Assembly (NCBI GenBank): GCA_019057815.1
Contig: JAHLWR010000035.1
Location: 1-22,077 of the forward strand
DNA length: 22,077 nucleotides
Origin: Candidatus Heimdallarchaeota archaeon
GTDB taxonomy: Archaea; Asgardarchaeota; Heimdallarchaeia; Heimdallarchaeales; Heimdallarchaeaceae
Direction of reading: 5' to 3'
Every line of letters starts with the position of its first letter. The first letter of the stretch is position 1. Both the position numbers and the translations under genes were made by a program. Positions 15,757 through 17,762 of the stretch are shown here, one piece after another. Below the pieces are notes generated by a model. It was not told the origin of the DNA and ran no database searches. It was given only the letters and a program-made list of their open reading frames with translations.

Positions 15757-17748
15757 TTATCGCTGTTTCCTCTTTTTGTACATAGCTACGAAAACAACAG
15801 TACCAAGAGCACCAAGAATAACGAATATTGACACCGATACAACAAATGTTGAAAATATTACTTTAGTGCTAGTTACAACAATTGTAGATGTTGTTGAAGA
15901 AGTAATTGGGTCGGTTATTACATGAGTAATACATCCTGCAGCATCCATCCATTCATAAGAAGCATCCAAATCAAAATTGTATCTGATTATGTTTTGATAA
16001 TACCAATAATCTTGACTTAAATAAAAGGGACTGTTGGAAATCGCGTATTCCCCATCATGAACTTTCTCATTTATTTCTTCACGATCGATAGCGTAGTTTA
16101 TTGCTTTACGAACTGCTGCACCTCTAGTGTATGTCTCTTTTCCTGGATAATCTACAAATTTATAGTTTTGGGAACCACCAATGAATGGACGTCGAAGGTT
16201 GTAGAACATGAATGTAAAGTATTTCTTCACTTTGTCATGAACTTCAAACCTTGAATCTTGTTGCATTTGTTTCCTTTCATCAGAGAAAGGTTCTAGATCT
16301 AAAATATCGAGCTTACCAGCTTTGAATTTAGCTAGAGCAGAAGTTTCTTCCGGGATGATTTTCATAATGAAAGTATCAATATCTAAGTCTTGGGAAGTAC
16401 CGTCGATTGCTCCAACACCAAACCAATAAGGACTCTTTTGTAGCACAGTAACTGAGTTCTGGACGTAATAATCTAACATGTACTTACCACACCCAAAAGC
16501 TGATTGGCTGTATAAACCCCATTCAGGTTCTAAGAGAATGCCGCTGTAGATACCAGTCATATAGACACCACCACCAGTTGTGGTAATTGTTTGATCAGTA
16601 CTGTTCAGGAAGAATTCAGGAAGACATAGAATTGGCATTCTAACCCAGAATGGACTATAAATTTCTAGTTCTGCTGTGTCTGGATCACGGTCAATTACTA
16701 TGTGGAAAGTATAATCATCTGCTTCATCTACCCATATATCAGCAATCCAATCATAAAGGGAAGGACTTTCACTAGTAATTTCGTTAGCCCAAGCTAAATA
16801 TGAAAAAACGGCATCTTTAGCCTTTACTTCTTGATTTGTTCCATCACTGGCTAAACCTTTTAGGCCAGCTACAGGTATCTCTAAACTTAGATCTGTTGAT
16901 CCATCTCTGGTTCTAACGTCATAAGAGGGGTTCCAAAAAACACCTTCTCTCATGTGGAAGGAGAAGTGACTGTCATTAATTTGTTCCCAATCATCAACAA
17001 GACCAGTCTTCATAATTCCACCACCCGGACTCATTTGAATGATGGGTTCCATCACCAATGAGGAGAGTGTTGAACTTGAAACATCATATGCTATCAATGG
17101 GTTTAGATCACGCCAACTTCTATCATGAGCAATAAATTCAGTTAAAGATTCTTGACTTTCATGATAAGCTGACCATTCCATATAAGGTAAGCAATCAACG
17201 TATCCCCAGCTTTCATCATAGCCAGTTAATGTTGCCCATGTGGCAGTATACGATCTTGGACTGAATAGAGGTAACATTGGGACGATTTTATTCATTAATA
17301 ATTGCTGCCATTCATAATAGTGCTGTTGTTTTGCGGTAGGATCGATAATGTTTACACCAGCATCAAGCATATTTTCACTTTCATTACCATAGGGCATGAG
17401 TGTATCGATTCCAAACATGTTTAGATAACCTGATTCTGAAAAGAGTTCACAAGGATTAGGATCACCTGAACCTCCAGTAAGAGCTACAATTCCAATGTCG
17501 AAATCGTAAGAAGCTGTAAGTACACCGATGAATACTACCCACTCCTCGACTTTAATAGAAATCCTAATACCTATCTCTCTTAATTGTTGTGCGATAAATA
17601 AGCCATAATCGGGACGAACTCCCCCACCATTAGTTTTAAAGGTTAAAACCGCTAATTCCTCATAAAAAACTCGTGCTTGACCACTATTCAGACCAACATT
17701 AACGATACATATTATTAGGAACGTAGTAACAACAATTCTAGATTTCGT
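15757..17748 (-). CDS. Family-5 (DppA/OppA-like) solute-binding protein, circularly permuted, C-terminal anchor, apparent ACG start
   Basis: The frame is open 110 codons upstream of the called ATG (17418): (ACG)KSRIVVTTFLIICIVNVGLNSGQARVFYEELAVLTFKTNGGGVRPDYGLFIAQQLREIGI..., homologous to the N-termini of both paralogs. Total 663 aa versus 661 and 675 aa. Motifs GCGKY, KAGKLDI, VRKAINYAIDREEI. Confidence 0.85.
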   Translation of the reverse strand, partial: TKSRIVVTTFLIICIVNVGLNSGQARVFYEELAVLTFKTNGGGVRPDYGLFIAQQLREIGIRISIKVEEWVVFIGVLTASYDFDIGIVALTGGSGDPNPCELFSESGYLNMFGIDTLMPYGNESENMLDAGVNIIDPTAKQQHYYEWQQLLMNKIVPMLPLFSPRSYTATWATLTGYDESWGYVDCLPYMEWSAYHESQESLTEFIAHDRSWRDLNPLIAYDVSSSTLSSLVMEPIIQMSPGGGIMKTGLVDDWEQINDSHFSFHMREGVFWNPSYDVRTRDGSTDLSLEIPVAGLKGLASDGTNQEVKAKDAVFSYLAWANEITSESPSLYDWIADIWVDEADDYTFHIVIDRDPDTAELEIYSPFWVRMPILCLPEFFLNSTDQTITTTGGGVYMTGIYSGILLEPEWGLYSQSAFGCGKYMLDYYVQNSVTVLQKSPYWFGVGAIDGTSQDLDIDTFIMKIIPEETSALAKFKAGKLDILDLEPFSDERKQMQQDSRFEVHDKVKKYFTFMFYNLRRPFIGGSQNYKFVDYPGKETYTRGAAVRKAINYAIDREEINEKVHDGEYAISNSPFYLSQDYWYYQNIIRYNFDLDASYEWMDAAGCITHVITDPITSSTTSTIVVTSTKVIFSTFVVSVSIFVILGALGTVVFVAMYKKRKQR

Positions 17749-17754
17749 TGAAAT

Positions 17755-17762
17755 TCACCTTT
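17755..17762 (-). promoter_or_regulatory. Shine-Dalgarno AAAGGTGA, 6 nt upstream of the ACG
   Basis: Minus strand AAAGGTGA-ATTTCA-ACG-AAA; the TGA within the SD is also the in-frame upstream stop. Confidence 0.7.

Follow-up and report, generated by a model that had tools for sequence, protein, structure and literature searches.

An ACG codon behind a strong Shine-Dalgarno sequence as the probable start of a solute-binding-protein gene in a Heimdallarchaeaceae genome

The stretch of DNA analyzed here (the window) is the whole of contig JAHLWR010000035.1, 22,077 nucleotides (nt) in length, from GCA_019057815.1, a metagenome-assembled genome of a Candidatus Heimdallarchaeota archaeon that totals 3.74 Mb in 48 contigs and has a GC content of 32.8%. 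On its minus strand lies an intact gene for a family-5 solute-binding protein with an ACG codon, behind a strong Shine-Dalgarno (SD) sequence, at the position where its homologues have a start codon. Positions without further label are those of the window; loci elsewhere are given by genome (G000, the present genome; G001, a second genome of the same genus), contig, and position.

Start region of the solute-binding-protein gene

The features that define the gene and its start are as follows.

17755..17762, minus strand: SD sequence AAAGGTGA, of which AGGTGA pairs with the 3' end of 16S rRNA and whose final three bases, an in-frame TGA, close the frame upstream
17746..17748, minus strand: ACG at the start position, 6 nt 3' of GGTGA and followed by AAA; in alignments it falls on the Met region of the two neighbouring paralogues
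17674..17745, minus strand: signal-peptide-like N terminus KSRIVVTTFLIICIVNVGLNSGQA, gone if translation begins at the first canonical ATG
15757..17748, minus strand: intact gene for a family-5 solute-binding protein (Pfam SBP_bac_5), 663 codons plus stop, with a C-terminal membrane anchor
17416..17418, minus strand: first in-frame canonical start, ATG, where the database gene call for the window begins, giving a truncated product of 553 amino acids (aa)

Read along the minus strand, the in-frame codons are TGA (17757-17755), ATT (17754-17752), TCA, ACG (17748-17746), AAA, TCT, and AGA, with the 6 nt ATTTCA as the spacer between GGTGA and ACG. The stop-to-stop frame (15757-17754) holds 665 codons; a start at the ACG yields 663 aa, and from there to the end the frame is free of stops and frameshifts, the further lesions by which a start-loss pseudogene may be recognized. 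The TGA, two codons upstream of the ACG, places the conserved N terminus out of reach of any canonical start: the first ATG, GTG, or TTG in the frame comes 110 codons downstream of the ACG, and initiation there (ATG 17418-17416) would delete both the signal peptide and a conserved domain, leaving the 553 aa of the database gene call, which spans 83% of the 663-aa query. The N-terminal 110 codons contain a block whose conservation extends to the two neighbouring paralogues and to more than 100 homologues in the databases, and they are coding, because the alignment with the paralogues runs from the signal-peptide region onward. The cleavage site of the signal-peptide-like N terminus is one that we infer rather than the output of a prediction tool.

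An initial annotation, made from the DNA sequence without database searches, had drawn the same picture, and its description of the locus holds throughout. The minus-strand reading bears out the closure of the frame by TGA with no canonical start for 110 codons, as well as the strong SD 6 nt before ACG-AAA; alignment to the two neighbours and the database homologues agrees that what would be lost is a signal peptide and a domain conserved in the paralogues; the 663-aa product does match its paralogues in length (661 and 675 aa); the ATT at 17754-17752 is indeed the more poorly spaced alternative, with no spacer to the SD; and the suspicion of an Asgard archaeon is met by homologues that carry the name Candidatus Heimdallarchaeaceae.

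Paralogues and homologues

The 663-aa product matches the Pfam profile SBP_bac_5 (PF00496) with an E value of 5.4e-38 and 131.5 bits, against a cut-off of 32.4. The start of this profile maps to residue 249 of the protein, consistent with a rearranged N-terminal part. Identity to the products of two paralogues that lie upstream is 44-46%.

17915..19900, minus strand: paralogue 2, 661 aa, GTG start; its stop is 166 nt upstream of the ACG
19946..21973, minus strand: paralogue 1, 675 aa, ATG start; upstream neighbour

With 166 nt between the stop of paralogue 2 and the ACG, there is no translational coupling between the two genes. The spacer itself (17749-17914, minus strand) opens with two oligo-T runs directly after the paralogue 2 stop and includes stretches that are AT-rich and TATA-like (ATTATAAGG lies about 30 nt 5' of the SD), together with a 12-codon open reading frame that begins with ATG (17812-17774, minus strand).

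About 10 copies of this solute-binding-protein family are present in the genome, the closest of which (G000:C43; 64% identical) begins GGTGA-N6-ATG. In relatives, all 19 homologues with a readable N terminus start with ATG, and a GGTG-type ribosome-binding site precedes most of them. As the SD is intact and both the homologues and the closest paralogue have ATG at the same place, the ACG occupies the ancestral start position. The comparison with related genomes that the initial annotation had envisaged is unanimous for ATG among 19 homologues, and it is one at paralogue level, none of them being more than 65% identical. No orthologue above 65% identity was found in 30 relatives, in 5.8 billion proteins (searched with the whole protein and with its N-terminal 385 aa), or in JGI metagenome contigs.

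Ribosome-binding sites and initiation machinery

The 3' end of the 16S rRNA gene carries the anti-SD GGATCACCTCCT. GGTGA, AGGTG, GAGGT, and related motifs are enriched upstream of the first ATG in long frames, at a spacing of 4 to 7 nt as measured from GGTGA, and a 6-nt spacer, as in the solute-binding-protein gene, is common. In the 16S gene (G000:C23:18421-19894, minus strand), an insert of 31 nt, AATACATGAGTAGAAACTTATGTATCGCAAG, which contains an inverted repeat, separates the helix-45 region CCTGCGGA from the terminal TGGATCACCTCCT; the Rfam 16S model stops short of this insert, and an identical 3' end recurs elsewhere on contig C23.

The initiator tRNA recovered by an Rfam search is a normal archaeal one (A1:U72, GGG/CCC anticodon stem, CAU anticodon) and bears an intron. 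The tRNA-Thr(CGU) of the genome is an ordinary elongator, and a CGU anticodon occurs in no genomic tRNA that has initiator features, i.e., a special initiator tRNA for ACG was not found. Many tRNA genes (e.g., C38:292671-292786, minus strand), that of the initiator included, are interrupted by introns of 20 to 45 nt; aragorn, run without special settings, counts 25 tRNAs, and the Rfam tRNA model counts 41. For aIF1, the start codon in this genome is ATG. No DYW-type deaminase (PF14432) was found in the genome, a weak negative because the control matched in no genome either.

Genome-wide scan for SD-spaced codons

We scanned the genome, as the initial annotation had also envisaged, for codons that stand at SD spacing at the 5' end of a long frame and lack a nearby canonical start. 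ACG was observed 3 times at such positions against 0.28 expected (p = 0.003), and all near-cognate codons together were observed 18 times against 8.2 expected (p = 7e-4). At least three N termini that are defined by homology have, in this one genome, an SD and an ACG as their only lesion.

A second ACG gene in the window

The window contains a second gene of this kind.

8356..8371, minus strand: SD AGGTGG (8371-8366), a 7-nt spacer, ACG (8358-8356), AAA, and GCT; kept in five other assemblies
7012..8358, minus strand: NTP-transferase/CDP-alcohol phosphatidyltransferase gene (assigned by Pfam), 448 codons with an ACG start; homologues are named bifunctional IPCT/DIPPS

The Pfam nucleotidyltransferase profile begins two residues after this ACG, and the first canonical start, a TTG at 8310, would remove the GxGxR loop of the protein. 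The cluster formed by this protein at 90% identity has six members, all of which have been called at 432 aa, 16 residues short and without the nucleotide-binding loop. We fetched the five other members (two from ENA, one from JGI, two from Logan), and AGGTGG-TTTTAGG-ACG-AAA is present in 5/5, with variable bases just 5' of the SD. These five assemblies represent four distinct sequences, 96.5-97.4% identical to the window at the nucleotide level; the 448-codon frame is open in all of them, and the pairwise ratio of nonsynonymous to synonymous substitution rates (dN/dS) between strains is 0.19-0.43. On the JGI contig, the upstream gene ends about 108 nt before the ACG, so the IPCT/DIPPS-like gene is not translationally coupled. 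Judged by its sequence, the gene starts at ACG and evolves under purifying selection, and its context is of the same kind as that of the solute-binding-protein gene. No homologue of it was found at E < 1e-40 in the 19 relatives searched.

A conserved ACG in a PHP-phosphoesterase gene

Another case brought up by the genome scan concerns a PHP-phosphoesterase (C35:1488), whose gene has the start region GAGGTG-N6-ACG-AAA and the encoded N terminus TKIDLHTHS. Residue 4 of this protein is where the Pfam PHP profile begins, and the next canonical start would lose the HxH motif. Among 27 orthologues from the family with a readable N terminus, the start codon is ACG in 19/27, ATG in 7/27, and an ATG one codon upstream in the remaining one (1/27). 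The other threonine codons ACA, ACT, and ACC occur at this position in 0/27, even though ACG accounts for only 6.5% of the Thr codons of this genome and neighbouring synonymous sites vary freely. Some copies have an ATG at codon 5; it is absent from seven of the ACG copies.

In the PHP protein tree, the outgroups have ATG, ACG is ancestral in the clade that joins this genus with the largest one, and a nested clade of six has returned to ATG, a distribution that requires one deep ATG-to-ACG change and one reversion. The SD varies along with the codon: GGTG precedes the start in 19/19 ACG copies versus 2/7 ATG copies (Fisher p = 3e-4, uncorrected for phylogeny), the remaining ATG-type copies reading GGTA or AGTG instead. 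In all of these genomes, an upstream gene of 140 codons ends 3-4 nt before the PHP start, and the SD lies within the last two codons of that gene; the ACG of the PHP gene therefore acts in a termination-reinitiation setting.

Other near-cognate codons at SD-spaced positions

Near-cognate codons other than ACG occur in similar positions in three further genes, as follows.

(i) In a PAPS-reductase/PUA gene, most of the 27 orthologues have ATA, ATC, or ATT at the SD-spaced position. At least 11 of these orthologues are without any possible in-frame canonical start, and the two genomes that have ATG carry the weaker AGGTA.

(ii) A znuB-like gene of this genome has ATA where the family homologues that were read have ATG.

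(iii) In a CinA-like gene, the codon is CTG in the two genomes that represent the genus and ATG in the others.

Authenticity of the ACG base

The base was checked in Logan contigs, that is, in an independent assembly of the probable source run (the same reads). The contig from that run (17.9 kb, depth 38.9) shows 0 differences from the window between 7000 and 20000, the ACG included, which makes a consensus artefact unlikely given that a different assembler was used, though the underlying reads are identical. The same study includes a further sample (run X4) with a contig that is about 88% identical and covers the start region of the solute-binding-protein gene; among the indels listed, those between 17748 and 16594 (-3, -3, and -1/+1) keep the frame, which is a weak hint. 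This run may be SRR14803095, a Logan run in which a strain-level copy of the second ACG gene is present. None of the sequencing runs listed as containing the stretch is an RNA run.

Proposed mode of initiation

On balance, we favor the view that the solute-binding-protein gene is live and that its start codon is ACG, a view we hold with some reserve. The strong SD AGGTGA, pairing with the 3' end of 16S rRNA and followed by a 6-nt spacer, would place the ACG in the ribosomal P site, where the ordinary initiator tRNA-Met (CAU) would read it with a mismatch at the middle base, so that the protein would begin with Met and retain its signal peptide. Initiation at ACG would probably be weaker than at ATG, with compensation by the strong SD, and the product is probably expressed at a low level. 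A T-to-C change in an original ATG, later than the split between this paralogue and its relatives, would have produced the ACG, and we propose that the ACG was tolerated because the lineage initiates at near-cognate codons behind strong SDs.

SD-driven ACG initiation, which the initial annotation had put forward for the solute-binding-protein gene, is well supported for the lineage, by the IPCT/DIPPS-like gene in six assemblies and by the PHP gene in 27 genomes. For the solute-binding-protein gene itself the proposal goes less far: there, we infer the use of ACG 17748, the tRNA that reads it, and the lower efficiency.

Several observations weigh against a live, ACG-started gene. The case for ACG use is built from comparative sequence evidence, and the ACG of the solute-binding-protein gene is known from one genome only: its best database relatives are no more than 65% identical (paralogue level) and all have ATG, and the same-genus genome G001 has no assembled orthologue, the copies found there being closer to other paralogues. 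The best-conserved ACG, that of the PHP gene, stands in a coupling context that the solute-binding-protein gene does not share. With about 10 copies of the family in the genome, one that had fallen silent could persist for some time. Lastly, 358 kb of relatives' DNA, fetched for other purposes, contained no further non-canonical starts, so such starts must be rare and a small minority.

Alternative explanations

The same observations can be read as a recent start loss, the strongest of the rival readings, in which ATG became ACG in one redundant paralogue that is now untranslated, or translated at trace level, and has not yet gathered further lesions. Such a change is a single transition in a family with redundant copies, every homologue reached has ATG, and the ACG is seen in this genome only, with no orthologue above 65% identity among the sequences searched. 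We nevertheless consider this unlikely, if deserving of real weight, since the 663-codon frame and the SD are both intact and since one genome contains at least three N termini in which SD plus ACG is the sole lesion, two of them conserved under purifying selection. By our estimate, a start codon is also a tiny mutational target compared with the sites open to nonsense and frameshift mutations, and the indels listed in the approximately 88% identical run X4 contig preserve the frame from 17748 to 16594. An outright error in the consensus, with a true base at 17747 that gives ATG, is scarcely credible: the genome is metagenome-assembled, but an independent assembler returns the same base at about 39x depth, an ACG of the same kind, in the neighbouring gene, turns up again in five assemblies of other samples, and random errors are not expected to fall on start codons behind SDs.

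Editing of C to U in the mRNA, which would turn ACG into AUG as in plant organelles and present the ribosome with a normal start, was raised in the initial annotation and gains nothing from our results; we regard it as very improbable. An interchange of ACG and ATG between orthologues is the pattern seen at edited start codons of plant organelles, and the PHP orthologues show it; C-to-U editing would also make TTG of the CTG candidates of this genome. The ATA, ATT, and ATC starts that were found in the same way, however, cannot become AUG by such editing, and an SD that is stronger in the ACG than in the ATG copies is what one expects for a weak codon, not for an edited AUG. The genome also yielded no DYW-type deaminase, weak evidence in view of the uninformative control. 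We know of no description of C-to-U mRNA editing in archaea, and literature searches likewise gave none. We give just as little credence to a start elsewhere, either at ATT 17754-17752, an accepted rare start that is in frame, or at the out-of-frame GTG 17758-17756 inside the SD, followed by a frameshift. The ATT abuts GGTGA, a spacing of 0 nt against the 4-7 nt used in this genome; the frame of the GTG meets a TAG after 6 codons, with no slippery site evident; and the ATGs of the paralogues stand at the spacing of the ACG.

Our judgement is evenly divided on a broader proposal: that Heimdallarchaeaceae, archaea closely related to eukaryotes, make regular use of ACG, as well as of AUA, AUU, AUC, and CUG, behind strong SDs to start a small set of genes, and that at least one of these ACGs (PHP) has been selected through divergence to about 50% protein identity, with compensation by the SD. 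A relaxed, tunable, eukaryote-like choice of start codon would then already exist in Asgard archaea, on machinery that is SD-based rather than scanning-based, and the set would include the solute-binding-protein gene as a recent addition.

Relation to known non-AUG initiation

Rare start codons are familiar from SD-dependent initiation in bacteria, where E. coli infC and pcnB start with AUU and where ACG, CUG, AUA, and AUC are weakly active in reporter assays. The ACG starts proposed here resemble them in being one-base variants of AUG at normal SD spacing that would be used by the initiator tRNA at reduced efficiency and that gene finders mis-call; they differ in the codon, ACG, and in the host, an archaeon with the eukaryote-type factors aIF1, aIF1A, and aIF2. 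The aIF1 gene here has an ATG start, which leaves this genome without a non-canonical start that serves autoregulation in the manner of infC. To our knowledge, ACG has not been documented as a natural cellular start codon in bacteria or archaea.

Eukaryotes and their viruses also initiate at near-cognate codons (ACG, CUG), as in VP2 of adeno-associated virus and C' of Sendai virus. The likeness would lie in an ACG that is read by Met-tRNAi, is weaker than AUG, and is conserved at specific genes. Unlike eukaryotic non-AUG starts, which depend on scanning and Kozak context, the codon here would be set by SD/anti-SD pairing and, in the PHP gene, also by the stop 3-4 nt upstream. Plant organelles edit ACG to AUG at start codons, e.g., those of ndhD and psbL, and require PPR/DYW editing factors for it. 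A genomic ACG where relatives have ATG is common to both situations; the differences are that PPR/DYW factors were not found in this genome (a weak negative) and that editing leaves the AUA, AUU, and AUC starts and the covariation in SD strength unexplained.

Full-text literature searches turned up no paper on conserved ACG starts in archaea. Ribosome profiling of Haloferax volcanii placed about 30% of putative alternative initiation sites on near-cognate codons, sites that the authors set aside and did not validate (PMC7261190), and a "rare ATT start codon" behind a ribosome-binding site has been inferred for a Heimdallarchaeia tubulin gene, a single gene (PMC13394414).

If initiation at such codons is real, standard gene finders truncate or miss the proteins concerned, and in the present case 110 residues, the signal peptide among them, are lost. 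For the origin of non-AUG initiation in eukaryotes, the stringency of start-codon choice in Asgard archaea would become a question accessible to experiment. The covariation in SD strength suggests a rule, weak codon with strong SD, that gene-finding models could adopt. The solute-binding-protein gene by itself is of modest consequence, adding one more member to a large family of surface binding proteins.

Candidates set aside

Five further candidates were examined and rejected. For an ACG on contig C8, the same-genus genome has a TTG one codon upstream. The ATT of a Zn-ribbon gene is preceded in most orthologues by an in-frame GTG of the SD that could be the start, a stop separating the two in only four genomes. 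Large proteins with CTG on contigs C12 and C16 have an ATG at codon 4 in 2/3 copies. A DNA methyltransferase gene (ATT-ACG, G000:C46:48333-48353), considered as a conserved ATT start, is instead a start loss in this genome, because AGG-TGA stands, four codons upstream, in the place of the ATG-GTG or TTG-GTG that relatives have in frame; this leaves about 140 conserved codons with no canonical start, and only the ATT or the ACG behind the resulting AGGTGA could serve. The candidate CTG start of a large secreted protein (G000:C35:93995) was dropped for ambiguity of frame: codons 4-7 contain a run of A10, as opposed to A11 in the same-genus G001:C31, where the CTG is thereby out of frame, and either a homopolymer assembly error or a slippery run is possible.

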